Origin: Haliotis rufescens
Lineage: Eukaryota
Assembly: GCF_023055435.1 (NCBI RefSeq)
Contig: NW_025963857.1
Span: forward strand, 1,488,001-1,552,000
Length of the DNA stretch: 64,000 nt
Direction of reading: 5' to 3'
Translations under genes and position numbers: made by a program
Part shown: one piece after another, positions 2,315-62,729 of the stretch
Layout: each line of letters begins with the position of its first letter
Numbering within the stretch: the first letter of the stretch is position 1
The notes under the pieces: generated by a model
The model's database searches: none
Told to the model about the DNA's origin: nothing
Seen by the model: the letters and a program-made list of their open reading frames with translations, nothing else

Positions 2315-4702
2315 ATATAAGCGTAAACAGTCAGAAAGAAAGGTAAATTGTGCGATGAAAAACTATTCAACAAATGCTTTCATAGAATTGTGACACGCAT
2401 TGCCATACATGGTCCACGGTATACAAAAAACACGGTGTCAGTGTCAACAGTAATTCAACAACTAACCTCGTTCAGATTCAAGGAACCTCACGCTTAACAT
2501 GCTCATGATATAGTCTGAATCATCCAAACAACTCTGCTTTATGCAGAGATATCTATTGGATATAGAAAGGGCCTTCTCGCTTTATTTAAAGGGTTATTTA
2601 AGAGACAATACCTATGGCGATTAAATAGCTCCGACCATGTGCGTACAACTGGATAATGTACAAATGCACTTTACACAGTGTGCTACTTGAGCTGTATCTG
2701 CAAGGACGTGGGTTTTAGTGGAATAACACTACTTCACGTTTGTGTTTTTCAGTCGAACATTGTACCGTGCTCAAAGACATTTATAATATAAATTGTCAAT
2801 GTAAAAGAATAAGTCGAAACAGATTCCATTTGGCGTAAACAGCTGAAATAACTGAAAATCAGTGATGACACCAGGTGTTCGCGAAAAAGGAAACATGTTC
2901 TCACTTACCGGTAGTTCCCGCCACTCGCACAATTTACATAAAAAGTATATTAGTATATCCGTGTAAGTACGTGATACACTGCTCTCGAGCTGTGTCTGCA
3001 ACGACTGTGGTTTTAGTCGAATATCAAAGTGGCGTTTCGAGAGCTGTTCACTGACACACGTACGTGTTATTCACTCAAGTATTTGACTCTGCTCAAGGAC
3101 ACACAGAGAACTCGTGACAGAACCAGGACATGAAGGAATCGATGCGAGAACATTATGTCTCGACTACACTTTGCTATCTGTTTGTTCAACTGAACCAGTT
3201 TACAACCGTAAAGTAGTGTCACTCCATCGCTCTCTATTACATGTGATCTCGTCTTTAAATATTCGGGGGCTGAGGTGTTACCATGCATCAAATAACTTAT
3301 TCATGAACCGTATGTTTATGTGAACTGACTATATGAGACATTACTCATGTTCGGTGGTTTGTATAGCCTATGATATAAGCTTTGGTTCTTCTCTACATAT
3401 AACAACCTTCCAAACCGTGACTTTAATATTTTACCACCAAATACAGGTAACCAGGGTAACCGAGTTACTGCAAGAATGAACATCAATCAACGTCAGATAC
3501 TTGGTCAGCCCGGACACAAATCCTGCCCACTCGATCCCCAGTTAGTTGGCTCTTACGACAAGCATGCAGTTCTGGGAACCGCTATCACCCGGAATCCCTT
3601 ATAGGGTCAGTTTATAGGTACTTGCATAACAACAGAACCGTCGGAGATACGTTTTAGGGCCAACTGAATCGTGACCCTAGTGGGACCCTGGACCTGATTT
3701 TTGACCTGAATATCTGAAATATGTTGACCTGATAATGCGGTCACCCTCACGTCTGTGTAATAAATGTGTTTAAATTATCATGCTGTAAGCAGAATATATA
3801 CTATGAACGGAACAAAATACACTTTATATTGCTACAATCATTTATCTGACAATGTTATTGGTGTCAAGGTTTAAATGACATGATGACATGTCACTGGGCA
3901 TTGAGCCGGGATCCTGATACTTGGTCAACCAGTTCGGATAGTTCGTTGTCGAGGCAGCAATAACAGGATGTGTGTTCCACACAGACAGGAACAAAATCAC
4001 ACAGCGGCCAATCCCTGGCCATCATTGAGACAAAGCAACTACTTCCGCTATGAACTTTGTCACTGTGAGCCTCATTGTGTGCATGTTTGTGAATATGTTC
4101 AACTGTGACATCATAGTGCATCATGACGTCATAATTTGACTGTGGCGCTACAAAAGTGAGTCATCATACATTTGCAACGATTTCTTTCAAAACTCACTCA
4201 CTCACTCATTGCTTAGACATCACAAGACACAACTTACCCTGTCTCTATGCGTTCTTTGGTTTCGGAAAACATTTGTATGATTGATCTTTTGTCTTAAAAC
4301 AATTGAAGTATTCTATAATCACTAAACAGGGAATTCCTAACAGTAACCATGGTTACTTTGTGAGACTTCGGACACAAGAAATGCACGGCCCTCTGAGGTA
4401 TGAAGTATTGGTCACCGAGTTTCCCAGCGAACATACGCTACCTTTACAGCTCGGTCATTACGAAATTAAGCGAAATAAAGCCACGGTGCTAGACATGATT
4501 CCGAATGATAACATAGCAACTTGTACCGGTGGTTATCGCGAACACCTGGAATCATCACTATTGATAGCGATTCATAAACACCTTCTCTTGATACACTCGG
4601 AACTGAACAATCGACCCTGCTTTTAATAACGATGTCTTACGAATATGGAAAGGGTTTTGTCGTTTTTATTCATACAACTTTCTAAACTGTTGAAGTATAT
4701 TA

Positions 4703-6431: not shown

Positions 6432-7705
6432 GAAGACAGGGGTGTCTGTCAGCGAGGAGGAGAAGGTGATGCGGGGGGAAGACAGGGGTGTCTGTCACTG
6501 AGGAGGAGAAGGTGATACGAGGGGAAGACAGGGGTGTCTGTCACTGAGGAGGAGATGGTGATGGGAGGGTAAGACAGGCGTGTCTGTCAGTGAGGAGGAG
6601 AAGGTGATGCGGGGGGAAAGACAGGGGTGTCTGTCAGCGAGGATGAGATGGTGATGCGAGGCGAAGACAGGGGTGTCTGTCAGTGAGGAGGAGAAGGTGA
6701 TGCGGGGGGAAAGACAGGGGTGTCTGTCAGCGAGGATGAGATGGTGATGCGAGGCGAAGACAGGGGTGTCTGTCAGTGAGAAGGAAATGGTGATGGGAGG
6801 GTAAGACAGGGGTGTCTGTCACTGAGGAGGAAAAGGTGATGGGAGGGGAAGACAGGGGTGTCTGTCAGTGAGGAGGAGATGGTGATGCGAGGCGAAGACG
6901 GGAGTGTCTGTCAGTGAGGAGGAGAAGGTGATGCGGGGGTAAGACGGGGTGTCAGTCAGTGAGGAGGAGAAGGTGATGCGAGGGGAAGACAGGGATGTCT
7001 GTCAGTGAGGAGGAGATGGTGATGCGAGGGGAAGACAGGGGTGTCTGTCAGTGAGGAGGAGAAGGTGATGGGAGGGTAAGACAGGTGTGTCTGTCAGTGA
7101 GGAGGAGACGGTGATGCGAGGGGAAGACAGGGGTGTCAGTCAGTAAGGAGGAGATGGTGATGGGAGGGTAAGACAGGTGTGTCTGTCAGTGAGGAGGAGA
7201 AGGTGATGGGAGGGGAAGACAGGGGTGTCAGTCAGTAAGGAGGAGATGGTGATGGGAGGGTAAGACAGGTGTGTCTGTCAGTGAGGAGGAGAAGGTGATG
7301 GGAGGGGAAGACAGGGGTGTCTGTCAGTGAGGAGGAGATGGTGATGCGAGGGGAAGACAGGGGTGTCTGTCAGTGAGGAGGAGATGGTGATGGGAGGGGA
7401 AGACAGGGATGTCTGTCAGTGAGGAGGAGATGGTGATGGGAGGGGAAGACAGGGGTGTCTGTCAGTGAGGAGGAGATGGTGATGCGAGGGGAAGACAGGG
7501 GTGTCAGTCAGTGAGGAGGAGATGGTGATGGGAGGGGAAGACAGGGATGTCTGTCAGTGAGGAGGAGATGGTGATGGGAGGGGAAGACAGGGGTGTCAGT
7601 CAGTGAGGAGGAGATGGTGATGGGAGGGGAAGACAGGGGTGCCTGTCACTGAGGAGGAGAAGGTGATGCGAGGGGCAGACAGGCGTGTCTGTCAGTGAGG
7701 AGGCC
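6432..7705. repeat. 46-bp G-rich minisatellite, about 27 copies
   Basis: Unit gaagacaggggtgtctgtcagtgaggaggagaaggtgatgcgaggg; starts directly after a SINE-type B box (gggttcaaatccc). Confidence 0.97.
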
Positions 7706-8255
7706 ATGCAGGATGTGGTCTTACCGATAGGAGAGATGGAGATGGGCATGTCACTACTGAAACGAAGCTGTGACGGCAAATGTGTCTTGGGTCGTATTCA
7801 TTACAGAATAGAGATATTATAAGTTGGATAATATTGGATGCTTAACGTAACCATGTGATGTGATACACAACTTCGATGCTGACATATTTCTGTCTCAGTG
7901 TTGCACATATACAGACATAGTTTCAGATCTGCAGGGCGGGTCCAGAGGAGAATAACTTGCCCCAGCTGACATTGTGTTTTTGTTTCCCTTGAGAACATCT
8001 CTAGCAAGGAGTACCGTGGTATACTATAGTATATGCAGTCGTCCTTCAAGACCATGCTGTTGCTGTGTAGTTCTCTCAGTGAGAGTTGGGACTTAACGCC
8101 GGCCTCGAGTAAATGCCCGGACTTAAACAGTTCAATGAAAATAAGAAGATAAAAATGCTCTTTGTCTGTAACATGGAAAGTTGGCCCATGCTTTATCACT
8201 GTTGAATTGTGTCCTTTATATCAAGCATCACCTGTGATCATTTTGGAGACGATAA

Positions 8256-8580
8256 TATTGGGAGGTCCTTGATTATATTGATAGGTCCTTGATTATATTC
8301 GGAGATTCATGATTATATTGGAAGGTCCTTGATTATATTGGTAGGTCCTTGACTATATTGGTAGGTCCTTGATTATATTGGTAGGTCCTTGATTATATTG
8401 ATTGGTCCATGGTTATATTCGGTGATTCGTGATTATATTGGGAGGTCCATAATTATATTGGTAGGTCCTTGATTATATCAGGAGGTCCTTGTTTATATTG
8501 ATAGATCCATGATTATATTGGGAGATCCATGATTATATTTGTAGTTCCTTGATCATATTGATAGGTCTATTATTATATTG
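8256..8580. repeat. 20-bp minisatellite, about 16 copies
   Basis: Unit close to ggtaggtccttgattatatt; two further copies at ~8990-9030. Confidence 0.92.
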
Positions 8581-9364
8581 AGATTCGAACCCAGATCCTC
8601 AGCGTGACGAACCAACCCTATAGCCACTGAAGGCTACCCTGACGGCAATAATACCAGAGGACCTGGAGATTGCGAGTTTGCAGGTATGCTATCAGACAAT
8701 GTACTGAACTTTCACACCAAATACATGATGTACCATGTTTAAAGAAACACATTTGAATATCTCGTACATACGCGGTATTCTATGTCCATAATGTTGAATT
8801 ATTTTTTATGATTTGTCCCGATTTTCATTAGGACCTAAACGTGAGTCGCCGACAGCCACGACGTCATACTTGTTCCATATTTAACTGCTGACATTGTGTT
8901 TTTGTTTCCCTTGAGAACATCTCCAGCAAGGAGTACCGTGGTATGCTGTAGTATATGTAGTCGTCCTTCAAGACCATGCTGTTGCTGTGAGGTCCTTGAT
9001 TATATTGATAGGTTCATGATTATATTTGGATCTAAACGTGAGTCGCCGACTACCATTTCAGTCAACTGGTTCAAAACATCCCCCGTGGTGGAGTGGGGAG
9101 AGCTGGAGCTTGGTGGTTCGATCCCTGGTCGCATCATACCAAAATACTCTAGAAGATGGCATATCTTGTATATCTGCCTGGCGTTCGGCTTCAAGGGGCT
9201 TCAAGTCCGGCCAATACATACATACACACACGTCACTGATAAGGAAAGTAATCTTGAACGCTACGTTACACACCATTTCACCTCATCCCACAGTGAAATA
9301 GATGCATGGCTATGTATTAAATATCTATAATTGACCAGCACGACAATGAAATATTCTACGATTG

Positions 9365-9612: not shown

Positions 9613-10169
9613 AAGTATGGAAGTATGAATCATTACGGATGTCAATAGAAGCCGTTCAAAAATTACTAGTAGTCCAAAACAGAACTTGCAGAACTTTAAA
9701 AATATGTTCATACAGATCAAATATCAGGTCAATCAACACAAAAACCAGCTCTGTCTGGACATCGCCTTCATCGGGGTACCCCGGTCCTACACGACCTCTC
9801 CCTCACACGACGACCCCTGGTTGTACTGTACAGAAGCAACCGCCTTTAGACTCCGCCACATGTCTGTCTGGAGGAACGTGAACCGAACCGACGCCTTGGC
9901 AGTCCTGATTACTTCACTCTGTTGATCTAGTTTGAGATACACACATGTACAGGTCTGGTATCTGAGATATGTTTAACACAAGAGTACGTTTATGTATCGT
10001 TTACTGTGAGACATGCATGTGTCTGAAATAGCCTAAATTATATCTCGACATCCATAAGGCAACTTGTGGATAATCAGTATCATTCTGTTTGGGCTTTTAT
10101 GAATTCCTCCCTAAAGACTACAGGAACCTGGGAGAGTTCTACAGACATAATTATGTATGTCACAAGTGG

Positions 10170-12542
10170 TCAGTGTTTACATGTGAACACCTTAATAACT
10201 CCTTCGCTACTGAGACAAACATACACGTGGCCATGTCCGTCTACGCACACACCCCAGGGTTGTTTGATACCGTCCTGTTGTGTCAGTATGTTTCTGACAA
10301 ACTGTCCTGACTCCGTCAGATGGATGACTCTGTGCAGAGAGGAGTCTGTCACCAGGATGTCACCTGTGCTGGTACTTGTGATACCCTGGGGATACTTCAG
10401 TGTTGTGTCTCCTGTAGGGCTGTAGTAGGTGAACACCACATCTCCCTCGGGGGTCAGACACAAGACACGCTTGGTTCCACAGTCAGACACCAGGATGTTT
10501 CCTGTCCTCGTGGTACAGAGGAATTCGGGATATTGTAAGATGTTGTTACCGTTGTGGTATGGACTGATTGATCTCAGCACGTTTCCCGTCATATCCAGGA
10601 TGTCAACACAGGGAGGAGACCGGGAACTAGCTGCTAGTGTTGATGGTGTCAGGGACGTTATGCCAAAGTACTGTTTGCTGGTTGTGATGGTTGACAGCAG
10701 CACCAGGTCACGGTTGACTTCTACTGTTACAATCTGATTGATGTTTAGGACACTGACGGCAACCTGGTTGTGTGTCAACTTTGTCAGACCCAATGGTCGA
10801 CCATCCAGACTGAGTTTACTGTGACGTGTCTGGTTATTCCTGGTGTAGAAGGACTTCACATTCATGTTGCCGTAGTCGGTGACTACAACTGTATCTGTGT
10901 CATTCACCACCATCACTGTCACGTCACGCGGGCATGGTGTGTTACTGTCTCCTGCTACTCTGACGTCAATGGTGTCCTGTAACACAGGAGTAGCCTTCAG
11001 GTCCAGCACACCCTCATACATGATGTCTATCTCACCCAGCTGTAGATCGTCCAGAGATTTACTCAGCTTGTCCATGTCCTGTCTGAATGTGACCTTGGTT
11101 ATTCTTCCTCTCTCCTTCAGGTATGTGTCTCCGACAGCCTCCACATCACCCGCCTCACATCCCTGATACATCTCATACACATCCATGTCACACTCAGATT
11201 GTAGAGCCTGGTCTATCAGCTCAGCCTGTTGTTGGTACATCTGTACTGACATCTCAACTGACTTAATGTCTGCCTTCAGTTGTCCAATGTGTTTGTCTGA
11301 CATATCTTTCAGTTCATCCAGAAGTTTCTGTTCCTTGAGTTTTATCCTTTGTATTGCCTTCAGACTTGCAGACTTGATGTCGGATTCCGTCTGTGAATGT
11401 TGACGTATTTCTTCAGCCATCACTGATTTCTTTTTCTGCACCTCTGTGTTTCGTTTGTGTCTTCTCCTTGACAAAGTCTCTTTCATCTTCATCAGCTCTG
11501 TCTTCACAGCCATCATTTCCGACTCGAGTGTGACGACCGAGTCACATTTCCTGTGGTAGATAGTGCAGCATGTCTGACAAACAGCTTTCTTACAATCTTT
11601 ACACAAATATTTGATAGTTTCGTCCTTGTGCTCTTTACATGTCACCTTGTGTCTTCTTCTGACCTTGACCTCGCCGGAGGTTTCCGTAATGACGGGATGC
11701 GGTTGTGAGCTCCAGTACATTTGTCACAGAGTGCCTCATCACAGACCGAGCACCAAACAACAGCTGGAGTTATCTCCCCTTCCTCTCTACAGTAGCTGCA
11801 GGAGGCTCTATCTGCAAATGTATATTAATCTTCAATGTGGTGTGTGTATCGTGGGGAGAAGAGGAGCCATCTATATGTGGTGTATTTCAACCATTATTCT
11901 ATTTTCACTACAATGTATTTTCTATGTTATTTGTTGAATCTACATCTGTCCAAGTTCTTCTCAAATATTCACACAGCTCATGTGAACTAGGTGATATTGT
12001 TACTGCAGACATTGCCACCATGTAAGATGAGGGTGTATCTACTATGAATTCATACTGTCAGAATATCGGCAAATACTACAAAACCACCATGGAAAAACAT
12101 GAAGCAACAATAATAACAAGTATCACAATAAAACATACACCTTCCTATGCAGAAATACATATAGGTACAGTTCTCAGTAAAATTTACTTTTTGTATATCA
12201 AATCTCAGTAAATTAGATTGCAGCCTGTTGAGACACAATCACTACTGTACCTTTAGATCCCGGACCAAACGAGTCCAAGAGTCCCTGGATGATAAAGATC
12301 GGATCGACGTCATCCGCCCACTCCTCCACTGGTCTCTCAGGAGCAGACACTTTCGTCATCTTGTTGCAGAATGGACAGAGGAGGGAATTGGCACTGATGG
12401 CTTCTGGTCTAGTTTTGGTGTATTTGACGACACATTTTCGACAGAAGGTGTGATTGCACACAAGTGTACAGGGATTATCAAACACTTCTGTGCAAATTGT
12501 ACAGGTCAGGAAATGTTCCGTTAGCTTCTGAGACGTCGCCAT
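10170..12542 (-). pseudogene. TRIM (RING, 2 B-boxes, coiled coil, NHL beta-propeller) gene copy 1, frameshifted after B-box1
   Basis: Coding exons 12542..12251 (RING: CTIC..CNHTFCRKC..CPFC; tttcag acceptor just before the ATG, GT donor) and 11811..10170 (catttgcag acceptor). Lacks 16 nt (acaaagtcattgacct) relative to copy 2 at ~11680, so the spliced frame stops at TGA 11644-11642 (153 aa). The downstream frame is open to TGA 10170; repaired length 649 aa. Confidence 0.88.
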
Positions 12543-12589
12543 CTGAAACATTTGAAGAACATTTTACACAACACATATACCTTATACAT

Positions 12590-12752
12590 GAGTGAGTATG
12601 ATTTTACGCTGATTTTATCAATATTCCAGCAATATCACAGCGGGGGACACCATAATTAAGGCTTCACTCATTGGACCCATGTCGGGAATCGATCCCGGGT
12701 CTTCGGCGTGACGAGGGAACGCTTTAATCACCAGGCTACCTGACCACCCCCC
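12590..12752 (-). mobile_element. tRNA-derived SINE (family B)
   Basis: Minus strand ggtcaggtagcctggtgattaaagcg (A box) ... gggatcgattccc (B box) ... tail cgtaaaatcatactcactc. Paralogs at ~28290-28450, ~45110-45270 and the head at 63968-64000. Confidence 0.75.
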
Positions 12753-12764
12753 TTAAAATTGAGC

Positions 12765-14165
12765 CTTCATGACATGAATATATATCCAAGTATATTCACG
12801 TGATACGATTCTTGCTCAAAAGTGGTTTGATCAAGGTTACAACATTCTAGGCCTCAGTAAAGCTTTCAGAAAGATTAACGGTACACATTTGAATGACATT
12901 TCAAAATGTTATGCATCAGTGACAAGACTGTCCGATGCAATTCCCAATGTGTTAATTCAGGTGAACAATTGACTTGCTTTTGCATGTGTTTGTTATGATA
13001 TTAGTGGTGTAGGACATTATCACCTCGTGGGTGTCACTCACTGGCGGTGTAGAGGGAAAGTGCATACCCGTGACAGAATATCCCCCATTCGGACAGGTAA
13101 AGTCTACTTCTGTGCAATATCTACACTTAAGAATTATACCGCCTCCATGATCAAGTAGAGAGAGCGTTTGCTGGCTGCCAGGATATAGTTTAAATATTGG
13201 TGACTGAGACGCAAAACAACATTCACACACATTTCAACGTAACTGTATGCCGTGAAACCTCGTTAATCCGGACAAAGTGACAAAAAAAATCCACAAAGAC
13301 TAAATGGATGACTTCAACTGTCCAGTAGTTAACTCTCCTTTATGTCGAGCAATATTCCAGAAGCACCAGCCTACTACATTTCACAACATATGAGGTACAA
13401 GTTCCGTTGATTAACGTAGACTCTCGCTACAGTACGTCACAACTGATACCGCAGCATGTAGGTCTAGTCTCAAATCTCCTCATAGTCCTTCCTTGAACAA
13501 ATATTACATTATATGTCGTATGTAATTCATGACAAGAGGGATGACTTCAACTTTCCAATGGCCAACTTTCCCTTTTATGTCAAGCAATATTTCAGCTGCT
13601 CAAGTCTGTTTGATCAGGGCCACAACGCACAGACCCGTGACCATCCGGAGTAGAATGGGTCTTCAGCAACCCATGCTTACTGTAACGGGCGACTATGCTT
13701 GTCGTAAGAGTCGGATAACGGGATCGGGTGGTCAGGCCTTGGTTGATGCATGTCATCGTATCTCAATTACGTGGATTGGTGCTCATATGTCCATCACTGG
13801 ATTGTCTGGTCGACACTCCATAATTTATAGACTGCCGTCATATAGCTGAAGTATTGCTGTGTGCGGTATTAAACAACAAACAAAACAAAACAAAACAAAA
13901 CAACCTCAGTAAAGATTCCATGAAGAGGTTACGGTAGACAAATGGAGGGTATTTCCAAATTTGACGCATCCATGGGAAAAACTATGTCCGTTGCAATTCC
14001 CTATTTTGCCTTGAACCATATGTTCCTGTGTTTGTTAAGGTGAAAAATTGACTTGCCTTTGCATGTGTTTGTGATGGGTACAATCGGTGGGGCAGGATAC
14101 ACTCAGATTTTGGCAAACACCTGGTATCGTCACCATGGGTAAATTATTCATAAACACATGCTTAC
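12765..14165 (+). mobile_element. Fragmented Penelope-like RT / 3' region relics upstream of the TRIM coding exon (paralog at ~28460-29890)
   Basis: HDKRDDFNFPMANFPF-MSSNISAA at ~13525, DDFNCPVV..SSNIPEAPAYYISQHMRY at ~13310 and KWFDQGYNILGLSKAFRKI at ~12820. The paralog adds FGVHITHILRYTRACSFYEDFKERH at ~29245. Confidence 0.7.
13633..13902 (+). mobile_element. Non-autonomous retroposon family C (no tRNA head, structured 5' end)
   Basis: cccgtga..tccgg..agaat.ggtcttcagcaacccatgctt...gtcgtaagag...aacgggatcgggtggtcagg...gcggtattaaacaacaaacaaaac; many other copies in the window. Confidence 0.8.
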
Positions 14166-15669
14166 TTTTAATTGAGATTTCCTATGACTATTGATGCCCT
14201 AAGCATGGAAGACTTTGAGTGGGATCAGTGCATTCTTGAATGATTTGTATTCTTAACCGAAATATATTACATGTACAGATATATTTTTCTTTCTCTATAT
14301 TGATATCAGTCTTGAAAAGTTTTCTGATTTAGATGATGTGGATGGAACCAGCAGAGACGTGATGAGCAGGAAGTAACAGAAAAATGGACGGAACACAATA
14401 CAGGATTAGATTTCGGCTGTTTTCGCTTGTTCTCAGCGCTATCGCGATTTTGATTCTATTTTCGTGTATTTCCACCCATGAAGATCCGGGGTAGAATAGG
14501 CCTTCAGCAATCCATGCTTGCCGTAAAAGACGAATATGCTTGTCGTAAGAGGCGACCAACGGGATCGGGTGACTTGGTTAAATTACTCTTAATGTAAAAA
14601 TATTTTACATTAAGGGTTGCGGGTTCACCCTTGTTACAATGTAATTTTTGTCCACATTAAGGGTTGAAGTGATAGATAAAAAAAGTTTACATTAACGGTT
14701 ATCCCTGTGAAATAATACTTATCGAACTTTCATGAAACTTCGCAGATTTAATTGATCATTACTTTGTCTAGATGTGCAAATGACTAATCATTTTTAGATT
14801 CCCTCTCTGCAACGACCACCTGGTTGTTATATTCTGGCTTCATAAAAGGGTTTATGACCCTTAACCCCTTTCACCGATTTTTATCAAAGTTACTGTTTTA
14901 CAAAGGTTATTTTTCGATACTCTGCAAGACGACCTCGTTACTATCCTAATACCGTAACGACGGAAAGGGGGACTCAGACCAAGCAGATCAGACCAAGTTG
15001 TAGATGATGGTTGGTTGTTAGAATGGTCCATTAACAGAGTTTCAGGCATAAAATAATGGACATTTTGATGCAGTATTACGGATATGTCAGCTAAGCATAC
15101 ACCAGAATCACCAGAAAGGAATTTCAATGCAATGATGTTTGGTTAAAAAAACAACCGTAGGTTCCTCAAGTACCGTGCCGAGTCAAATAGTTTATATATT
15201 TCGGATATGAAGTCTATACCTTTTCTATAGCAGTTTAACATATCCTGTAGTAAGACCATTGTTGATTGAAAATCGCAAAAAAGAGCATTAGGCATACGGC
15301 CTGTAGGGTATTTCATGTCAGTTAGGAACCGACCATTCGAAACTCTGTTGGAGGTGACATAAGCTCACCACGGAATTTCGTACAAGGTGAGCTGTAAATG
15401 CTTTCTTCTTTAAACATATGTTAGGTATAAATCGTATTGTGCATCGTATATCGCGCTTTGGATAATTTTGACACTTTTTGCTTGTTTTTGCACGGGCGAC
15501 AATGCGAAAACGCGACAATTCTCCCTTGAGGTATTCCATATACAACCGCAACATATTATAACATCTTTGGGGGTAAACGAGATTCCTGCATATTATAAAG
15601 AGACAGCCAATATTCAAAACAGCTAGCGACTGAAAAGAACATTTGCCAGACTCGGTTCTATGTCACTGA

Positions 15670-21879: not shown

Positions 21880-22727
21880 ATCGTCGCACGAGTTAAATAC
21901 GTATGCATGAATGTTAGGGTGCCTTATTAGAACACACGAGAAAACACCGGAAAACACATTCTTTTTCCTACGTTTATCTTTAAAACAAATGCCAAGAATC
22001 CCCAAATACACTCGTGACAGAGCCATCGGAATGTTGCAAGTAGGCATGCGTACTGCAGACGTTGCATTACATGTTGGTGCGTCCGTGAGGCCAGTACAAC
22101 GTCCGAGGGAACGTTACAATGCAACTGGAGTCCGAGAGTTGACGTCCACGTCTAACAACGCCAGCTATAAACCGCTATATTGGGACGTCACATTTACGCA
22201 ATCGTTTTCTCCCATCAACTGTGACTGCACTTAACAAACTGTTCGCAATCGGCTGTGACAATATGGTCTCAGATCCAGGGGCCATACGTTTGGCCAGTTT
22301 CTAGCCAACGTCGAGAGTGGGCTCGTGCACGTCTGCGTTAGACTCGACGTTAATGGCAGAGCGTGCTCTGTAGTGACGAATTCTGTTTTTCACTCTCCAG
22401 AGGTGACGGTCGACGTTGGGTGTATAGACGGATGAAGGGAACGTTATGCTGACGCTTGTGTTTCTGACAGAGATCGTTTTTAAGGAGCTGGATTGGAATT
22501 GTTTGGGATGGAACTGCACACGGTCATAGCACAGCTCTTGTTCCTATTTGTAACAATATGAATGCGATCCGCTACAGGGGCGAGATTCCTGCTCAGCATA
22601 TGCATGGTGTCCCTTACCTCAACGCCGTTTCAGCATGGCAATGCCACAAGTCACACCACGCGCATCACACGGGACTTCCCGCAGGCTAACCACGTGGATG
22701 ATATGCCTTGGCCGGCCAAACGTCCGG
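21880..22727 (+). mobile_element. Tc1/mariner transposase relic, cut by a family C retroposon at 22728
   Basis: ATG at 21989 gives MPRIPKYTRDRAIGMLQVGMRTADVALHVG; later TVRNRL, SDE, FQHGNATSHTTR and MPWPAKRPD in broken frames. Confidence 0.85.
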
Positions 22728-24049
22728 ACCGTGAATATCCAGGGTAGAATAGGGCTTCAGAAACCTATGCTTGCCGTAAAAGGCGACTTTGCTTGTCGTA
22801 TGTTGGTATGACGTGTGACATTGCCGATTGTGTCGCACCGTGTCCAAACAGCATGCATCGTTGCTCATGCTGTCAATCACTGATTTCTCTGGCCCAGGCT
22901 GCCAAGATGCAGTTGAAATATTGCGGACTGAGCCGTAAAACAACATGCACGCAGTAATTGTAAACCGTTAAACCCTGTTAATCCAGATAGAACCTGGTTC
23001 AGTGTAATCGATCCACGGGTTCGTATTCAAATATATCTGTGACGTCCTCCATTGTTTAAGAGCTCCATTATTTTTTAAGAATGTGGTTGGCTATCAATTA
23101 CACTTTCTATTGAACCAACATTTCGGTTGATTGTCACTCGGAACAGACTGATCTATAGTTCTTATTTGACAATCAAGTGAATGATTACTAATGTTATCGG
23201 AGCATGTGTCTCCAGCGTGGCTAGAATCCGATTAGTATGATTTGATGACGTGTGATAGTTGACCTCGGATACGGCGACACGTCACAGTGAAATTAGCTAT
23301 TTTATCATTTCCAATATCCAAAATCCTTAAAAGCTCAGAACGTGATATGCATAATGTCGTGTTACATCCTGTTACCTGTTACAATGTTCGCGTTTAAAAA
23401 AGCTAGATAAACCTTTGACGAGAAGAAACTAAGGATCAGATAAACATATAAATCCTTGTACCAAATATATTTGGGATAACACTGGCAGTGTGGGTTGGAA
23501 TCCCGGACGGGACTCAACTAAAAAACGTATGAGAATCTATACTTTAATAAAGAAAGTGTTATCCCAAATATGTTACATTTGTTACACTTTCTAAATGGCA
23601 TTGTGTGTGCAATATATATCCTTGTCAGGGCCCATTAATTCTAGTTACCGTGTATTTAAAACGTGCAAGCGATTTCAAAAGTACACGCTTAGGTCCCCAC
23701 GTAATTGGATAGAGTCGTGAACCTCGTATCGTTACGATCAGCTCTCGACGAAGCCTTTGCGCACGTGCAACAGCAGCAGAAATCATAATCCACGTACATC
23801 ACATCACGACTCAAACACTGTAAATACAGGCGACAAACATTTCTGGTTAAGTTTTCAAATAATTTGTTTGAGAATGTTTTGTCAAAGTATTAACGGTAAC
23901 GGTGTGTTTTAAGGAGAAGAATAGCCTATGTAGTCAAAGGTCCAATATTTTCAAGGATTGAAGAGTTACTAAACACCATGTGCAGAGCTGCGTAAGTCAG
24001 GAGTGCCTGGATCCTATTATCGTGGGTTCAAATCCCAGATGGGAGATGG

Positions 24050-28247: not shown

Positions 28248-29349
28248 CTGAAACATTTGAAGAACATTTTACACAATACATATACCTTATACATGAGTGA
28301 GTATGATGAGTGATAGCCATATTCCAGCAATATCACGGCGGGTGACACCATAAATGGGCTTCACTCATTGTACCCATGTCGGGAATCGATCCCGGGTCTT
28401 CGGCGTGACGAGGGAACGCTTTAATCACCAGGCTACCTGACCGCCCCCTTATAATTGAGCCTTCATGACATGAATATATATCCAAGTATATTCAGGTGAT
28501 ACGATTCTTGCTCAAAAGTGGTTTGATCAAGGTTACAACATTCTAGGCCTCAGTAGAGCTTTCAGAAAGATTAACGGTACACATTTGAATGACATTTCAA
28601 AATGTTATGCATCAGTGACAAGACTGTCCGATGCAATTCCCTATGTCTAATTCAGTTGAACAATTGACTTGCTTTTGCATGTGTTTGTTATGTTATTAGT
28701 GGTGTAGGACATTATCGCCTCGTGGGTGTCATTCACTGGCGGTGTAGAGGGAAAGTGCATACCCGTGACAGAATATCCCCATCCGGACAGGTAAAGTCTA
28801 CGTCTGTGCAATATCTACACTTAAGAATTATACCGCCTCCATGGACTATTAGAGAGAGCGTTTGCTGGCTGCCAGGATATAGTTTCAATATTGGTGAGAC
28901 GCAAAACAACATTCACAGACATTCCACAAAGACTAAATGGATGGCTTCAACTGTCCAGTACTTAACTTTCCTTTATGTCGAGCAATATTCCAGAAGCACT
29001 AGTCTACTACATTTCACAACATATGAGGTACAAGTTCCGTTGATTGAACTCGCGAAATAACGTAGACTCTCACTACAGTACGTCCCAACTGATACCGCAT
29101 CATGTGGGTCTAGTCTTCTCATAGTCCTTCCTTGAACAAATATTACATGATATGTAGTATTTAATGCATGACAAGAGGGTGACTTCAACTTTCCAATGGC
29201 CAACTTTCCCTTTTATGTCAAGCAATATTTCAGCTGCTGAAGTCTTTGGTGTCCACATAACACATATTTTGAGGTATACTCGAGCATGCTCTTTCTATGA
29301 AGATTTCAAAGAGCGTCATTTGTTGTTTGATCAGGGCCACAACGTACAG

Positions 29350-29620
29350 ACCCGTGACCATCCGGGGTATAATAAGTCTTCAGCAACCCATGCTTGCTGT
29401 AACAGGCGACTATGCTTGTCGTAAGAGGCGGATAACGGGATCGGGTGGTCAGGCTCGCTGACATGGTTGATGCATGTCATAGTATCTCAATTACGTGGAT
29501 TGATGCTCATATGTCCCTCACTGGACTGTCTGGTCGAGACTCCATAATTTACAGACCGCCGTCATATAGCTGAAATATTGCTGAGTGCGACGTTAAACAA
29601 CAAACAAAACAACAACAAAA
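29350..29620 (+). mobile_element. Retroposon family C, full-length copy
   Basis: Paralog of 13633..13902, inserted at the same point in the PLE relic; ends gcgacgttaaacaacaaacaaaac. Confidence 0.8.
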
Positions 29621-30539
29621 AAACTCAGTAAAGCTTCCATAAAGAGGTTACGGTAGACAAATGGGGGGTATTTCCAAATTTAACGCATCCATGGGGAAAA
29701 CTATGTCCGTTACAATTCCCTATTTTGCCTTGAACCATATGTTCCTGTGATTGCTAAGGTAAACAATTGACTTGCCTTTGCATGTGTTTGTGATGGGTAT
29801 CATCGGTGAGGCAGGATACACTCAGCTTTTAGCAAACACCTAGTATCGTCACTATGGGTAAATGATTCATAAACACATGCTTACTTTTAGTTGAGATTTC
29901 CTATGACTATGGAAATGCTTGTTTGTCATCGCGTTTATCTCATGAGCTCTTAAGGAAGACGCTAATGGATGCCCTAAGCCTGGAAGACCTTAAGTGGGAT
30001 CACCGCATTCTTGAATGAGTTGTATTCTTAATGGAAACAAATGACGTACAGATATTTTTCTCTTTTTCTATAGTCATATCAGTCTTGAAAAGTTTTCTGT
30101 TTTAGATGATGTGGATGGAACCAGCAGAGACGTGATGAGCAGGAAGTAACAGAAAAATGGACGGAACACTATACAGGATTAAATTTCGTCTGTTTTTGCT
30201 TGTTCTCGGTGCTATCGCAATTTTGATTCTGTTTTCTTGTATTTCCACCCGTGAAGATCCGGGGTAGGATTGGTCTTCAGCAACCCATGCTTGTCGTAAA
30301 AGGCGAATATGCTTGTCGTTAGAGGCGACAAGGGATCGGGCGACTTGGGTAAATTACTCTTAATGTAAATAATTTTACATTATGGGTCACGTGTTAACTC
30401 TTGTTACAACCCTTAATGTAAAAATTACTCTTTATGTAAAAATATTTACATTATTCAAAGTTCGGATCTGGTGATTTGGGATCCTGATACGTCAATTCTT
30501 AGTTCTTACATGTCACGTGTCACATGTCACATGTCCCCC

Positions 30540-32360
30540 ACCTCACCAAGATTACCCTGAACACCCACTGGTTCAGAATTCAGCGACGAGAAATAGTCCC
30601 CCAAGTCTTGTATATCAATAGGGTTGGGTCGTTGCGGTCGTCCAGACACACGCGTTATCTTGTCCCAGAAACGTTTAGAGTCTACCGCTGCTGCATTTTC
30701 TAGGTCACTCCTTTTACATTGTGCAAACTGATCCTTCTTGATTCCACACAGTTATCTGTATTCTTGCAAACTTTATTATACTTAAAAAGGTAGGAGTTAT
30801 CTTCTTTCTTCTGAACGCATTTAAATTATGGCATCGTTCAGTTTTTTTTACAGAGCCATTTATCATCATCGGGGAACATGTCACTCGATGCTAAACAATA
30901 ATATATATCAGAACTAAACCCAAAATGTCCAATAGGGGGCACGGGTGGCCCAGTCGTCTAAAGCGCAGCGATTCGCTGTGCAGAGTTGCTTCCCTTGGGC
31001 ACACCAGAAACCTTTGATTGTGGGTTCGAACCCCGGTTCGCCCCTATTATGTTGCTAGGTTTGTCAGCACCATACCCGTGCTCGTGGGTTACATCGATTT
31101 GGGTTTGGGTTTTTTGTTTAACGCCGCACACCAATATTACAGCCCATTGACGGCGGTCTGTAAATAATCGAGTCTGGACCAGACAATCCAGTGATTGATA
31201 TCATGAGCATCGATCCACGCAATTGGGATCGATGACATGCATCAACCAAGTCAGCAAGCCTGACCACCCGATCCTGTTAGTCGCCTTTTACGACAAGCAT
31301 AGTCGCCTTTTACGGTTACTGAAGACCTATTCTTCCCCAGATCTTCACGGGTCGGGGTTTCATCGAAGTGGCAAACGTCTGAGGCCTGCATCACTTGGGG
31401 CTTTCCTCCAACGTTTAGCTGCAACGCCGTGATATAACGGGAATACTGTTAAAAGCGGAGTTAAAACCAACTAAATAAATGTTGGTAATGTTGGTAATAA
31501 ATGTACAGTCACCGATTTGATAGTCAGTTCCAAATCTTCCATTCACAATATGTATGTTCAAATTTGAACACGTTTTCAAAAGATTTTTCAAAGGTATTTA
31601 GTAATTTATCACATGAATATCTTTCCATCTCAAATTGTGTAAATAACTCTACAAAGTAAATATTACTTTCAGCATGGTGAATAACATCGTTCTCCACATA
31701 GTCCGTGAAGATCCGGGGTACAAAAGCTCTTCAGCAACCCATTGTTGAGTGCGGTGTTAAACAACTAACAAATAAACAAACAAATCCAAGTACAATGATA
31801 GAAACAGCTGGGTACTCTTACAGTGTACTCAATAAAAAATACAGCAAAATCTCTACCCCATTTTGTCTATCTTTGTTGTCACACCAGGTCGATTTCTACG
31901 GATGGATATATGTAAACACACATAATGTAGCTCTACTGAAACCAAACATACTTTTATCCAACAGAATAGTAATAACATGTTCTCTGTATCGAACATCAAT
32001 AACATGTCTTACGAGTGAATATTGTATCAAAAGTATACCTCCCGAATACCTCCCGAACTTGAACCTTTTTGTGGCTTCTATATTCCTTGCAATGTAAGAT
32101 ATGCTTTTGCATAACCTTCGACCTTGACGGCAGCACCCGCTCCTGATCCACAGTTGACGATGTTCCACTTGAGTCGCGATCTGCAACTGGAGCCGACAAC
32201 TGATGCTCATCACCTTCCAGAGTAGTAGCTGGCATGTCCTCAATGACGAGCCTGCCATTCTTATAATAGCCCCTCTTGTTCTCAGGTCTGAGCAAAGTCA
32301 GTTTCTCACGCTGTCGCTTATTACGAATAATTGCAAGAAACCGAGCAAAAAAATAAAAAA
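30540..32360 (-). mobile_element. APE-type non-LTR retrotransposon (LINE) relic interrupted by SINEs; clade not determined
   Basis: Endonuclease-like FGRYSGGILLI..ITILLDKSMFG..LCVFTYIHP at ~32060-31890; linker-like DSKRFWDKITRVSG..IDIQDLGDYFSSLN at ~30690-30570; ORF1-end-like KRGYYKNGRLVIE at ~32270. Confidence 0.6.
30935..31480 (+). mobile_element. tRNA-SINE family A with a nested antisense family C element (31098..31354)
   Basis: A box ggtggcccagtcgtctaa and B box ggttcgaaccc. The body is split by an antisense family C copy flanked by a 12-bp duplication, gggttacatcga (31086-31097) / gggtttcatcga (31355-31366). Confidence 0.88.
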
Positions 32361-46879: not shown

Positions 46880-49800
46880 GGTTAGAACTAAACTGAAAGG
46901 CTTCACTAGGCCCAGTAAAGATAAAATGCGTTTGTTAAAACAATGGGGACATTGCAAAATTTGAACTAGCCCACAGGAACTTGTACTAGCCCCGGTCTAG
47001 CGGGCTAGTGTTAATTTCTAACGCTGGGTTGAAATCAATTCCCTAGAGCTGTTAATTCGTTGCACAGAATTTAATTAAGAAATATATGTTAAAGCTGTCA
47101 TGACTTTTGAAATAGATTTTGAAATAGTTTGTTATGACTGTTGGTACTTTATATCCATGTTTATTATGACCATGATCAACTGTATTGTCTGATCAGCACT
47201 TGGAGGAATAACTCACGGACAGCAGTTAGATCAACTCTGAACATGATGAACCCTGTTCGAATGAAAATAACAACCCATATATGCCCTTCTGTATGTCTGG
47301 GGTTTGCGTGACAGATGACCCATCCCACCTGCTTCTAGGCTTTTGTTCTGTGTTTCGATTTAGAGTTCAGTTAACTGATAACTGTATTGAACTTTAATAT
47401 TGTTATTTAATATGTTTTATAACATTATTTGTGTTATTATATATACGTATATTATTAATCACTATTTATTTTACTTGTTAAATTTGTGTTTGTATGTTTT
47501 GTGTCTTTATCGTAATGTCACCATTTTCATGTTAAGCATTATTAAGTTATGTTTCTTTCCAGTTAGGAATAAAGATGACAGAAATTAAATAAAATTTGAA
47601 TACAACATTGCAATTTTGATCTTTCTTTGGAGAGAAGTTGTTACATCCATAATGTTGTTTGCTTGTTTGTTAAAACCTCACTCATCTATGTCCCAGCTGG
47701 ACCAAAGATACCAGTGAATGCTATATGAACAACGATCCACGCTGTCCTCGAATGCTGACTCACAGACCATTTGGTCACCTCTTGCAGCCTGGGAAGCTTG
47801 CTGGGGATCCGTTCTAACCTGGAATCCACACAGTGCAGATGCATAATGGCACAATGTTATTCAATGATATTCAAAATCACTCCATTTACAACTATACATG
47901 TATATTAATAAAAGTGACAAAACCTTTCCCAAAATTATACGAAATCTTCTAAAAGCAGAGTCCATTGTTAGATTCCACCTATCATGAACATGAGTTTATG
48001 AATCACTATCAAACAGAGATGGTACCACGTGTTTGTGAAAAGGTGAGCGTATCCTACCCCACCACAAACACGTGCAAAGGCATGTCAATTGTTCACCTGA
48101 CAAAATATGGGAACATATGGTTCAAGCCAAAGTAGGGGATTGCATTGGACATAATTTTTTTGTCACTGATGTGTCTTCTATATCTATGTCTTAGTATAAC
48201 TGATATCAATAAGTAATACAATTATACAATTATTCTAAACTATGAATCAGCCTCATTGTAGCTCTATGTTAGCTAGCTAAAGTTAAAAATGTACAACCTA
48301 TTGCAATGAGCAATCAAAAACGAATGTGATTTCCAATTGTGGAATTCGATTGAGCCCAGATTGTACATGCTGTATGTCTCAGTCCAACAGTCCGTCGGTA
48401 TTCTCGTAATTAAAACATATAAATGAACACCCAGAACCTTCAAGTAAAATATGAATATATTTATTCAGTAACCATGGTAACTGGTACCAACAATCATCTA
48501 TAACATTCAAATAAGATCAATGCAAAAACTATTGGGTATTCATTACACTGACTGCCAACAATCCAGATACATGTTATTTGTGTTAGACACTGATATAAAG
48601 TCATCCCTCTCTGTCGCCACTGTTGTAATCTGCTGCAGTTTCCAGACACTACAGTCTCCAGCCTCATGGTTTCATCATCATGCCAACACACCCTACAGGA
48701 AGCTCTGATGCTCTCAGTGTTGCTATTGTGTTCGCTAGAATACAACAGTGGAATTTCCTGTGCATCATGTTTCCATGTGTGATGTATTAGATCAGTGCTT
48801 TAACTATTGATCAACAAAAAATAAAGATGAATGTTCTTTGTCACCTGTCAGCAGTTTGTGCAAGTTCTCCTGTAATGTTGGTATGTGTCCAGTGCACACA
48901 CCTCATGGTATCTCTCAAGTTCATCTGTCATCGATCTTATGGCGTTTTGTTTTCTGTTACTTGTTTATCCTAAGAAATAGGTCTATATGTTTTTTCATTA
49001 ATGCCAGGCCTGATAATGACACTCTTGAATTAAATATCACACATTTGTAACTGCCTGACTCAGAAAAGTGGTATTTGCTCACAGACAAGTGGTATTTGCT
49101 CACAGACAAGTAAGTCTCCTGCAAATACTATTGATAGCTGCACCAGTTCTCCGGGACATTCTTCAATGGTAAATGCTGTACAATTCTGACCTGCCAGTCA
49201 TATTTCCAAAAGAACAAGAAATTAAATGTTTATTTATATCTCTTTCTATCAACCCTATATTTGTTAAAAAAATACAGCAGAAAGATTTAATTGGAGGTTT
49301 TAATTTCATTGTATATCTTTATCTCAACCACCACCCAAATGACATAAAAGAAATGTCTCAGAATCATATACTAAAAGTCCCATAGAGGATCCAGCATGGC
49401 AAATGACATAAAAGAAATGCCTCGAATGTGGAAGAAGAGACAGATTCGACCGACATACATTACACATGGAAGTGTCGGCAATACTTGGACATTATCAACA
49501 GGGCACTCTACAAGTTAGTGAGTTAATAAAAAAAACATACAACTTTATGATCAAGCTAGAGTGATCACTCCAGCTTGACAACGGTGTTAGAATATACATG
49601 GAAATGCTGCTAGATGAAATAAACAGGAAATTGTTTTCTTAGCAGGGTCATACAGTCATCTAATATTCAACTCTGAAGCGTTCCATAATCAACAGAAACA
49701 GTTAGTGTTTAGTATGTTAACAACTGGTGGAACCTCTCCACAGGCAGTATGTCGTGCACTGACATGGTATGTATACTACTCAAAAGAAATTAAAGAACAC

Positions 49801-51772: not shown

Positions 51773-53477
51773 CAAGTAGCTGGGGTTGATCTGAGGTAAT
51801 TTCCAAAAGAAAACCCTTGAAATAATAGTTTTACCAATATTCAACCACAGATGGGGAATAAACATATGTCCAATTTTGCCTTATTTTACTTTTTCCAAAA
51901 CTTGGCTGCATTTGGCCATAAAACAATAAAATAATTTGGTCTGGCCCTAATATCATATATAAAGTGACCCAAGCATGCATACTGCCAACAATATTGTCCT
52001 GATGTAATGTGCCCCAAAATGGACAATACAATGCTTAAGTGCTCATAATGCTTTGGAACATTTCTCAAAGTACCAAAATTTCACTTTCATTTTCCTATAA
52101 CAAAATATATATTCTTAAATTGCTATGGAAACCAAACTCCATGATAGTGTTTTTTCAGTCTCTGTATCTGTCTACAGTATACAGGAATTGAGCATTCAGA
52201 CAAAGGCACTATATGGGATAGATATATATACAACACCTCATTCTGCAATAGTACAGCTACTAGTATATCACAGCAGTCGGGGAGTAACCACTGACAATCA
52301 GACACCTGGTAGTGGTAAACAGGACGCTATGGCCCAGCTGACACATTGCAACCACACAGCCACTCATCTTACATAAGCTAGGTGTACTGGCGAGAAATAT
52401 TATGCTGAAAAATCTAACAAGACAGAGATCGATGTTGTAACATAATCCATACCAAGCACAACACAAAGAAATATATATCTTGTTTATAATTACAAAAATC
52501 CCGGAACAGCCTGAATAAGAAATATCAAATGTCACAATATCAAAATCCATACTTATCTTGACAATAAATGAAAAAAAACTAAATAAGCAAACTTGAAACA
52601 TTCCTAGGCTATCTCAAAACTTTCATAGAAACAAATTTTATGATGTGTTTCTGACTACTGAAGGAATAACAGTGTAATATAAATATGCACACATATAAAA
52701 TTGGACTGACGTTTAGAATGTAGTAAGCAATGCATAAATACTTTAGCTTCAAAATATTTAATTACCTTATACAAATAATAAGAACAACAACAGATTTGAA
52801 GAAATCTCTATTTTCTATATTACCGTATTTTCTTGAGTATAGTGCGCACTTTTTTTCGAAAAAACACAGCTGTGTAGAAGGGGGTGCGCATTATACACGA
52901 ATTATGAGTTTGGATGTTTTTTCCATATATATATCCAATACTTCAATTTCTTATCTACATCAGCATCCAGTGAGCGGCAAGTTCTGCCTCACGAGTTGCA
53001 TCGACAGAGAAGCCATGTAAGCCCAGGTGATACCGTTCCCCGTGAACTTTTCCCGATTAACAATCTGTGTTTCAGAGTAATATCATTTGCGAACATATTT
53101 TCTTTGTTGTTTTTTTCTTTGTCTGTTTAATACCATGCTCAGCAATATTCCAGCTACATGATGGTAATCGAGTCTGTGCCAGACAATCCAGTGATTGACA
53201 TCATGAGCATCAATCTACACAATAGGGATACAATGACAAGCATCAACCAAGTCAGCAATCCCATCAGTCACCTCATGCAACAAGCATGGGTTGCTGGAGA
53301 CAAATTCTAACCTAGATCTTCACGGGGTTAGCAAAAGGGTACATGCTCAATCATCCAGAAAGCAGGGTGTGTGGACTAACAAGGTTTCTTTGTAACAAAC
53401 TTGTGTCAAGCAGTGGCAGTAATACGTGAAATGTGGTTCTCAAAACAAGGGTGCACTTATTGGAGCGGAGAGTATCA

Positions 53478-61121: not shown

Positions 61122-62729
61122 ATGTCACAAACGAAGCGAGCATGGAAACTACGTAAGTATTTAAACGATCCGCTGACATGCCAAATAAGACTAGAAATGA
61201 TTTCTCCTCACAAAATCTTGACTGACATAAAAAGGATGTGTATCTATGCGATGTTAGGATCTATGCCATGTTTTGCTATACGTGATAGTATGTTTTTCAT
61301 TCTTATGGTCACTTTGATTAAGATAACCCGATGACAGTTAACATGTGTTAAAACGCACAAATTGACAAAACACAATATTTTCATGTGAATTGGAAGATCT
61401 AGGTTCATTCACTCTGGTTGGTGTATCATCCCCTGTGTGTTAAACCAACCTCTTGAAACAGGTAGTAGAATAAGAGGTATACTTGCATGTGGTAAATCCA
61501 AATATACAAGAGCTAAAAAGATGAGTGCCATGTTAATACACATTTAATTATATACTGGTTATTGGAGAATATAATTTCATTTTCTTCAGAACATTGACAA
61601 CTGAACTTGTTTATCCTGGGGCAAATAGAGATTGGAAAGGAACATGATAAATGTTATAAATTCTGCCTGCTTACAAATTAATGAACACGGTTGTAATAAC
61701 TGATGATAGATGTGTCACCATTTGCATAATTAGTGTCATAAATGTGATTAATATCTATCTTCTTGTTTTTAGCATGGGAAAACTAGCTTACAAGGGATAT
61801 TAGTAAACTGATATATTGAATTTATTAATCATTTTTATTGACAATGCTAATGAATTTAAGCAAATTTGCTTTCTCTTTTCACATCAAATGAGTAGCTTTG
61901 GTTTGAAATGTTATCTGAAGTGAATTTGGGAGGAGAAACGTGTAAATAAAATTAATTATTTCACCATGTTCAAAGCTAAAGATTTTTTTATGATAAGTTT
62001 GTTCTTCACTTAACAATTGCATGTGAGCTAAGGACTGAAGGTACTAGTGGTTAAAGTTATGGTAGTATGGCCGAAGACCTGGATTCTGTTTCCATCCTTT
62101 GTACAAACCCATGAAGATCCGGTGTAGAACAGGTCTTCAGCAACCCATGCTTTCTGTAAGAGGCGACTATGCTTGTCGTAAGAGGAGACTACAGGATCAG
62201 GTGGTCACGCTCGCTGACTTGGTTGATGCATGTCATCATGTCCCAATTGCGTAGATGGATGCTCATGATGTCAATCACTAGATTGTCTGGTCTGGACTTG
62301 ATTATTTACAGACCGCCATCATACAGCTGGAATATTGCTGAGTGCTGCGATAAACAGCAAGCAAACATCATGTGTACCATATGTACAATGGCTGCAGCAC
62401 TCTCTTGGTGTCCCGACATCTTGTAGCAGAATAATGGATATACAAATAAGACTGATAACCAGAAATCTACCAATAAACGTTATCAAAGAAGAAATATCCT
62501 TAAATAATATTTTTGTGAAAAGGTAAAAAAATACTAGTTAAGAAACCAAGAAAAGCTGGTGTTAGAATTGATGAGTGTTTTTATTTCTGTTTTGACAGAG
62601 GAGTTTGTGGCTCACAGTGCCAATATCCAGTGTCTGGCAATGGGTCACAAGTCCGGCAGGGTCATGGTCACTGGTGGGGAAGACCGGAAGGTCAACCTAT
62701 GGGCCCTCGGCAAGCCACATTGCATCATG
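61122..62729 (+). CDS. KATNB1: Katanin p80 WD40 subunit B1, first two coding exons (gene continues beyond the window)
   Basis: Exons 61122-61152 and 62599-62729 splice to [54 protein letters not shown], the conserved KATNB1 N-terminus. Confidence 0.93.
62108..62365 (+). mobile_element. Retroposon family C copy in KATNB1 intron 1
   Basis: cccatgaagatccgg..agaacaggtcttcagcaacccatgc..atgcttgtcgtaagagg..cagaccgccatcatacagctggaatattgctgagtgc. Confidence 0.8.

Follow-up and report, generated by a model that had tools for sequence, protein, structure and literature searches.

What does the head of a retroposon do when it has neither a tRNA nor a Pol III promoter at its front? A window of 64,000 nucleotides from Haliotis rufescens, the whole stretch of DNA analysed here, raises this question at position 13633, where one copy of a short repeated element begins with a compact pseudoknot and hairpin. 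The initial annotation proposed a 5'-processing ribozyme, an internal promoter or an IRES-like element. Its options omitted an exonuclease block, which fits the positions of the motif best. According to the analysis, the head is a conserved RNA motif that animal LINEs and SINEs have in common with unrelated RNA viruses, and it could quite possibly be an xrRNA of a new fold that blocks a 5'-to-3' exonuclease.

Copies of the element in the window

The nine copies listed from the sequence were all recovered by BLAST and by a covariance model, and the family is real. The model gave 11 head matches in the window at E<=0.1: the listed nine plus 3530-3607 and 47759-47836, both on the minus strand. 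The nine stand for no more than seven insertions, because the pairs 13633/29350 and 14475/30248 sit in a segmental duplication (10022-14639 versus 25715-30409, about 89-93% identity by self-comparison). More paralogues of this segment were seen on the same contig (L008, L015).

The named copy is a full-length but decayed LP-type SINE, with head, body, LINE-like tail and (CAAA)n, which occupies 13632..13904 on the plus strand and is duplicated with its flanks at 29349. Its P1 stem is formed by 13634-13637 pairing with 13646-13649, a pairing supported across lineages, with an unpaired U inside P1 at 13638. The 5' strand of the pseudoknot helix (13639-13645) carries two substitutions, the linker (13650..13657) has AGAAUA at its end with the final base altered in this copy, and the 3' strand of the 7-bp helix, where covariation was found, is 13658..13664. 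Two tandem 22-nt units followed by UAA and GGG fill 13673..13722 (hairpins 13679-13693 and 13701-13715), and the tail, which resembles the 3' end of an I/Nimb-type LINE called L307 below, runs with its microsatellite end from 13820 to 13904. The decay is visible in the fold: 5 of the 7 pseudoknot pairs are kept, and the score of 21.4 bits is the lowest the model gave in the window.

On the plus strand, BLAST and the covariance model also recovered the full-length segmental duplicate of this copy (29349..29625, approximate end), a head-only copy whose body is missing (14473..14577), its duplicate (30246..30345) and a further full-length copy (62106..62370). A diverged copy (22726..22975, approximate end) and an internally deleted one (31700..31787) came from the covariance model. 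On the minus strand lie a full-length copy with an internal deletion (31090..31353, approximate end), which has the window's top model score of 61.5 bits, and a copy with a single hairpin (53085..53328, covariance model, approximate end). Two old, diverged minus-strand matches were new to the list, both from the covariance model: a head variant at 3530..3607 and a copy at 47655..47836 (head 47759-47836, approximate end).

The order of P1, loop pseudoknot and hairpin agrees with the first description. The hairpin is mostly duplicated in tandem, as had been claimed, being double in 6/9 copies, single in 2/9 and missing in one, 31703, where the pseudoknot half is fused to the tail. The head was said to be without a tRNA, and zero tRNAs were found across the 64 kb. 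The claim that Pol III boxes are absent stood in part: the full-length copy L012 has no strict A box, but its head holds two loose A-box matches, each with one mismatch, and a B-box-like 9-mer is found at +149. The self-comparison also showed several tandem arrays in the window, at 6431-7703 (~92 bp), 24057-25055 (~92), 34527-37214 (~57), 32821-33154 (~91) and 8251-8586 (~60).

Genome-wide abundance and relation to published LP-SINEs

A 106-nt query run against the 1.33-Gb genome gave 1973 candidates, and all 40 of those scored matched at E<=8e-34. With the covariance model, 56 matches were found in 40 unselected 10-kb stretches, several of them from one tandem array; extrapolated, this gives a copy number of about 10^5. 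The element is about 255 nt long plus a (CAAA)n end.

This family is close to one already in print. LP (LINE-promoter) SINEs have a head of about 70 bp that also stands at the 5' end of three LINEs, two of them Nimb and one RTE (PMC4758252), the named carriers of this 5' domain being Nimb-17_LMi, I-3_DR and RTE-9_CPB (Matetovici et al. 2016, PMC4758252). The families described are Hdi_LP, Hmi_LP, Lsa_2, Oco/Oed_LP and Sgl_LP, and the Haliotis consensus is 255 bp. Because of this length, close to the ~255-nt unique part of the window SINE, the latter is probably Hdi_LP or a sister family. Like the LP-SINEs, it has a head without a tRNA, and its homology is confined to the first ~65-70 nt. The head corresponds to the ~70-bp LINE-derived "Nimb-17 homology" domain of Fig. 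S2 in PMC4758252, in which the pseudoknot, linker and hairpin can be made out by eye. Target-site duplications are variable and the 3' end is a short tandem repeat, (CAAA)n; the tRNA head with A and B boxes that marks the 5' end of a tRNA-derived SINE (SINE2) is absent. By eye, the scallop head of Fig. S2 and the Pan_3 head of Fig. S7 in that paper have the same motif with different paired bases.

What differs is the interpretation. The text of PMC4758252 suggests a promoter role for the LP head, leaves the partner LINE unidentified and gives no structure, viral copies or upstream HDV-like ribozyme. A review of LINE-derived SINE parts (PMC5786205) does not, in the part consulted, cover the LP-head motif. 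The initial annotation had called the head uncharacterised. This holds for the fold, of which no description was found, and for its place outside Rfam, but the head sequence and the tRNA-less SINEs were published as LP-SINEs (PMC4758252). Its suggestion of a similar motif at RTE-like 5' ends elsewhere was borne out by the Nimb and RTE elements named in that paper and by LINE 5' ends that share the head. The structured RNA motif on this known retroposon head is real, and its fold is undescribed in the literature found; neither the fold nor its viral copies were described in the matches of full-text searches, mostly listings and abstract openings, a body that leaves out figures, most subscription papers, bioRxiv supplements, Repbase and Dfam, so that an earlier description may exist.

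Two variants of the motif were seen elsewhere in tandem. At L298-L299 (G000:C57:2176600-2194000) there is an array of ~640-bp units with one mostly intact motif variant per unit, and at L401:4264-4713 the hairpin part has grown into a 33-bp tandem array within one SINE copy.

Fold of the head and covariation

The head is modelled as a motif of ~65 nt with a short P1, a 7-bp loop pseudoknot, the AGAAUA linker and a small hairpin, predicted to be of the H type. Covariation between lineages supports this fold as that of a conserved structured RNA. The main alignment has seven lineages with identical spacing (the SINE, the LINE, four short viral records and one large viral record) and is gap-free, anchored on AGAAUA alone. 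In it, 48/49 pseudoknot cells are paired, where shuffling gives 30.7 on average, and this count was reached by 49 of 200000 shuffles, about the rate of the identity permutation. An intact SINE copy was used here; the run with an indel-bearing copy had 50/56 cells pairing. When 12 lineages anchored on a sequence word were added, 114/133 cells paired versus 77.9 when shuffled, and 0 of 200000 shuffles reached this value. By pair count, the seven lineages were 97.1% paired versus 77.2%, with slid controls at 26-54%, and changes on both sides were seen in 7/7 pseudoknot pairs and 2/4 P1 pairs. Among 14 non-viral rows, 85.7% was paired versus 78.6%, with both-sided changes in 5/7 pseudoknot pairs.

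The pseudoknot had been described as a helix of 8 bp. The loop pairing stood, but 7 bp plus one unpaired U describes it better, because this U never varies, whereas the base proposed to pair with it is A in 8, C in 5, G in 3 and U in 3 sequences (n=19). This first loop U shows no covariation and probably makes up the single-nucleotide loop of an H-type pseudoknot. The CCC/GGG stem fared less well, with modest support: 260/20000 shuffles reach its score and it is absent in 2/16 lineages. The AGAAUA linker is invariant in alignments A1-A3, though the search patterns demanded AGAAUA, and because the hairpin was a search pattern too, its invariance is not evidence from covariation. About 20 bases of the motif are invariant, an invariance imposed by the search patterns, and these could equally be compatible with a catalytic core or a protein-binding site.

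The head lies outside every Rfam family. Rfam gave no match over the window copies at E<=5, and none over the motif in 9 viral loci or 10 other loci.

Where copies of the element start

The 5' edge of the SINE is sharp. Target-site duplications of at least 10 nt were found for 14/65 copies, and in 13 of these 14 the gap from the end of the duplication to P1 is 0-2 nt. Among 18 copies taken without selection, position -1 is A in 17 and position -2 is G in 10; from -3 on, the base composition is close to background. A metagenome family from another animal (30 copies) has A at -1 in 77% and is at background from -2, and the scallop alignment in PMC4758252 Fig. S2 shows the same sharp edge. Small-RNA reads on one SINE copy numbered 2, 19 and 1, with no pile-up of starts at these low counts.

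The LINE that shares the head

Searches of the same genome found a full-length autonomous LINE, L307, with the SINE's head; the head is common to LINE 5' ends. The ORF1 frame of L307 spans 453 aa, and its ORF2, of 1229 aa, contains endonuclease, RT and RNase H, an architecture that we take to be that of the I/Nimb group. The element is flanked at both ends by a 13-nt duplication. Exact patterns counted 713 and 1002 LINE heads in the genome. The SINE and L307 have their first 62 nt in common at 78% identity, and the SINE tail (copy L014) aligns to the 3' end of L307 with a score of 46.5, where the best of 2000 shuffles reached 41. Because the end repeats differ, the true partner LINE is likely a relative of L307.

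In the LINE, the motif follows directly, with no spacer, behind a minimal HDV-like ribozyme. The RF02682 model gives it 28.5-30.5 bits, short of the gathering threshold of 44, and its P4 is minimal. By its sequence, this upstream module has the P1/P3/L3 core, the catalytic C in J4/2 and the start at G1 of an HDV-like ribozyme, and LINE copies begin at its first G. When LINE copies were chosen with a pattern lying downstream of the motif, the ribozyme was complete in 30/30; in six further variant copies it is whole in 4, partial in 1 and absent in 1, so that 35/36 copies retain it wholly or partly. One compensatory pseudoknot change separates LINE subfamilies (3/64 rows).

Some observations on this LINE stand by themselves. 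The minus strand of L307 at 7613-7670 (G000:C2 ~22565600) and ~1000 sister heads have a minimal HDV-like ribozyme with almost no P4, and the I/Nimb-type family has many near-identical full-length heads with the ribozyme at the exact 5' end. Small-RNA reads on the LINE head numbered 0 and 92 in two runs. In run X22, 85 reads at L307:7578-7606 were one 29-nt antisense species over the pseudoknot, with zero in run X21; the 85 could be copies of one molecule.

The motif in viral records

A search of IMG/VR with an 18-nt hairpin pattern, which demanded neither pseudoknot nor linker, matched 9 records, and 7/9 had the full pseudoknot and linker upstream. A looser pattern matched 12 records; the motif is present in 8 of them (7 distinct), and the other 4 have the hairpin only. 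A model built from non-viral copies alone gave a best match of 34.7-69.4 bits in each of the 8 viral records, and 17-25 bits in the 4 chance records with only a hairpin.

In 6/7 distinct records the motif is on the coding strand behind the last ORF, and in these six short records the hairpin is 55-174 nt past the last stop codon and 14-119 nt from the contig end. Across all 8 records, the motif lies on the coding strand in a viral 3' UTR or between genes, and in two (L418 and L425) it is repeated in tandem. Marker domains of RNA viruses (Peptidase_A21, RdRP_4, Capsid-VNN, Viral_coat and RdRP_3) were identified in five of the distinct records, the nearby ORFs matching a tetravirus-type capsid, RdRP_4, a nodavirus capsid, an S-domain coat and RdRP_3. 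One distinct record has no Pfam match. The other is a large DNA-virus record of 212,482 bp with HhH/BRCT domains nearby, in which the motif (L420:1454-1530) lies between genes, ~120 nt upstream of a long open frame, and no retroposon body is evident in the flanks shown.

A stop-codon readthrough element was considered and rejected because the spacing to the stop codon varies among the viral records. Looser viral patterns (65 matches; at least 120; at least 120, of which 100 were scored with the model) returned only chance or already known records, with no hairpin variant among the matches listed for them. The phage collection gave one chance match of 25 nt.

Metagenomes and prokaryotic assemblies

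Metagenomes gave at least 123 matches, mostly from several repeat families with unrelated flanks. In prokaryote genomes (GTDB), 15 pattern matches were found and 5/15 carry the motif, one per genome: two at contig ends beside simple repeats, two on short contigs and one at a LINE 5' end. A prokaryotic occurrence was therefore rejected, and these cases are read as eukaryotic contamination, given the contig ends, the short contigs, the single match per genome and the LINE on a symbiont scaffold. This LINE, L670 (G003:C4 ~518900-525050), is intact, ~6 kb long and likely host DNA contaminating the scaffold of a bacterial symbiont. Its ORF1 is 40% identical to that of the related LINE, and the similarity starts at the motif, the HDV core upstream being absent in this single copy, for which no target-site duplication was found.

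A proposed block to 5'-to-3' decay and its alternatives

Position and topology are the basis for reading the motif as an exonuclease block. It is preferred because it fits the 5' edge of the SINE, the place in the LINE behind the ribozyme and the place in viruses behind the last ORF. The SINE, with no Pol III promoter at its front, would be transcribed by read-through from host promoters; Xrn1 or Xrn2 would trim this transcript to the base of P1 and then stall, leaving a stable RNA of unit length with a uniform 5' end, which an I/Nimb-type LINE protein could copy by way of the LINE-like tail. For the LINE, the motif may be a second guard behind the 5' end made by the ribozyme, and in viruses a short RNA from the 3' UTR would be left over, as with the xrRNAs of flaviviruses and plant viruses. 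Known xrRNAs in 3' UTRs, some of them repeated, stop Xrn1 at the nucleotide preceding hp1 (PMC10520033), and in another class, a stem-loop whose loop pairs with a 3' strand, Xrn1 comes to a stop exactly at P1's base (PMC12397905). The wider proposal, that a new RNA fold which blocks 5'-to-3' decay has passed between retrotransposons of animals and RNA and DNA viruses unrelated to one another, is possible but open to some doubt. Several points weigh on the exonuclease block. The motif in L420 lies between genes and upstream of an ORF; simple H-type pseudoknots are, to our knowledge, not generally proof against Xrn1; and the LINE keeps the motif, compensatory change in 3/64 rows included, although the HDV-like ribozyme already makes its 5' end. 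The product of an HDV-like ribozyme has a 5'-OH and is not a substrate of Xrn1. This apparent redundancy is the weak point of the exonuclease block; it hints at a different or further function and keeps a translation role alive.

Such a role, though unlikely, would make the motif an element for cap-independent translation that recruits ribosomes or initiation factors: LINE RNA left uncapped by HDV-like cleavage, and viral RNA by way of a 3' enhancer, would be translated through it, and SINEs would retain it to encounter the LINE protein on ribosomes. The motif is indeed retained immediately after the ribozyme in the LINE and just past the last stop codon in RNA viruses, and its numerous invariant unpaired bases suit protein binding. 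We know of no likeness between it and the named classes of cap-independent enhancers, and translation leaves unexplained why several non-coding SINE families start 0-2 nt from P1. The 3' cap-independent enhancers of tombusvirids do occupy similar sites past the stop codon (PMC10520033). The same sharp SINE edges, with the many invariant bases, could be produced by a new class of self-cleaving ribozyme with its cut site immediately 5' of P1, which was the main idea of the initial annotation. Ribozyme satellites have a ribozyme once per tandem unit, as the motif occurs once per unit in the 640-bp array, and in the single copy L670 similarity begins at the motif with no HDV core upstream. This idea is weakened, and now looks quite improbable, because 35/36 LINE copies keep an upstream ribozyme that efficient cutting at P1 would strip away; cleavage in the 3' UTR of a linear virus would moreover cut off the end of the genome, and the Rfam models of pistol, twister, hammerhead and hatchet have no match.

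An internal promoter acting as DNA, with the RNA fold secondary, as suggested for the LP head, would account for starts right at the domain, since a start of transcription would likewise be compatible with SINE starts at A or G. A dual role is conceivable, the 77-bp element of ingi/L1Tc having promoter and ribozyme activity together (PMC4758252). A promoter-only role was nevertheless weakened to the point of being very unlikely, because a DNA promoter predicts neither compensatory pairing nor a place behind the last ORF of RNA viruses, and in the LINE the motif is 58 nt inside the 5' end defined by the ribozyme. There is finally a small chance of a mobile RNA module that does something else: the motif might bind a protein of the host or a reverse-transcriptase protein, or serve in packaging, localisation or escape from immunity. 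Its carriers are patchy (Nimb and RTE LINEs, several SINE bodies, and viruses with unlike marker proteins), and the s2m element, swapped among viruses, is a parallel; no mechanism for the sharp 5' edge is offered by it.

If the exonuclease block is right, animal genomes encode an xrRNA, this one about 10^5 times, and the 5' end of a SINE can be made with neither promoter nor ribozyme, through trimming by the decay machinery. Whichever explanation wins, a structured RNA common to LINE 5' UTRs and RNA-virus 3' UTRs has no precedent in the literature found. It bears on two questions about LP-SINEs, the origin of their 5' end and the LINE clade that mobilises them. The motif is small, its fold is backed by covariation and natural variants exist in animals and viruses, which makes the question tractable in vitro. 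As of a 2021 review, xrRNAs were known from viruses and cellular ones were still to be found (PMC8374639, in the part consulted); a 2025 paper calls for new xrRNA classes and for contexts beyond +RNA viruses (PMC12397905).

Comparison with known RNA classes

The head falls outside the HDV, hammerhead and twister folds, as had been judged by eye: the Rfam models have no match, and an HDV topology for the SINE head, tried by hand, was rejected, the nested double pseudoknot, L3 core and catalytic C being absent. HDV-like ribozymes stand at the 5' ends of non-LTR elements (R2, L1Tc; RF02682), and one of them forms the very start of the LINE with the shared head; in that LINE the ribozyme is a separate upstream module, and the SINE head is not HDV-like. 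In the pistol ribozyme, the P1 loop forms a pseudoknot and an A-rich linker follows. The motif has this same layout, but its pseudoknot partner comes directly after the linker with no P2 strand between, and Rfam gave no pistol match.

Because membership in xrRNA classes 1-3, the coremin class, the HDV-like ribozymes and the other Rfam ribozymes fails, the claim is worded as one of function: the motif, whose sequence matches no known xrRNA class, could quite possibly work like an xrRNA. The three-way junction and double pseudoknot of classes 1 and 2 are absent in alignments A2 and A3, and Rfam has no match. Class 3 xrRNAs of Tombusviridae and Solemoviridae (PMC12397905) are nearer, with a 5' stem-loop that pairs through its loop with a strand farther downstream, a non-coding site in viruses, and an Xrn1 stop at the base of P1, which is where SINE copies begin. 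They have a P2 helix and a J1/2 bulge that docks into a hairpin (L2B) in the apical loop; the motif has none of these, its 8-9-nt loop lying wholly in the pseudoknot, which has 7 bp against 9 in class 3 (ST9a). Also unlike class 3, it has an extra conserved 3' hairpin domain, is found in host retroelements, and has a putative resistance. The linker (8) and the partner strand (7) add up to 15 nt versus ~15 nt for the xrRNA ring, which is suggestive only.

The coremin xrRNA (xrRNA-C, PMC10520033) is likewise a small conserved motif that occurs in repeats, with a GUC/GAC stem and then a UAA-containing spacer, in the 3' UTRs of tombus-like, noda-like and dsRNA viruses. The motif differs from it in having a pseudoknot before the hairpin and a hairpin loop that begins with GU in all aligned copies, not the YGAD/YGNNAD of the coremin hp1 loop. 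A separate module drew attention in the published SINEs: the core of the Nin domain in several mollusc SINEs (PMC4758252 Figs S7 and S9) has a GUC/GAC stem, a 10-nt loop and an A-rich spacer. By eye, it resembles the coremin signature (PMC10520033) and is possibly a second xrRNA-like SINE module.
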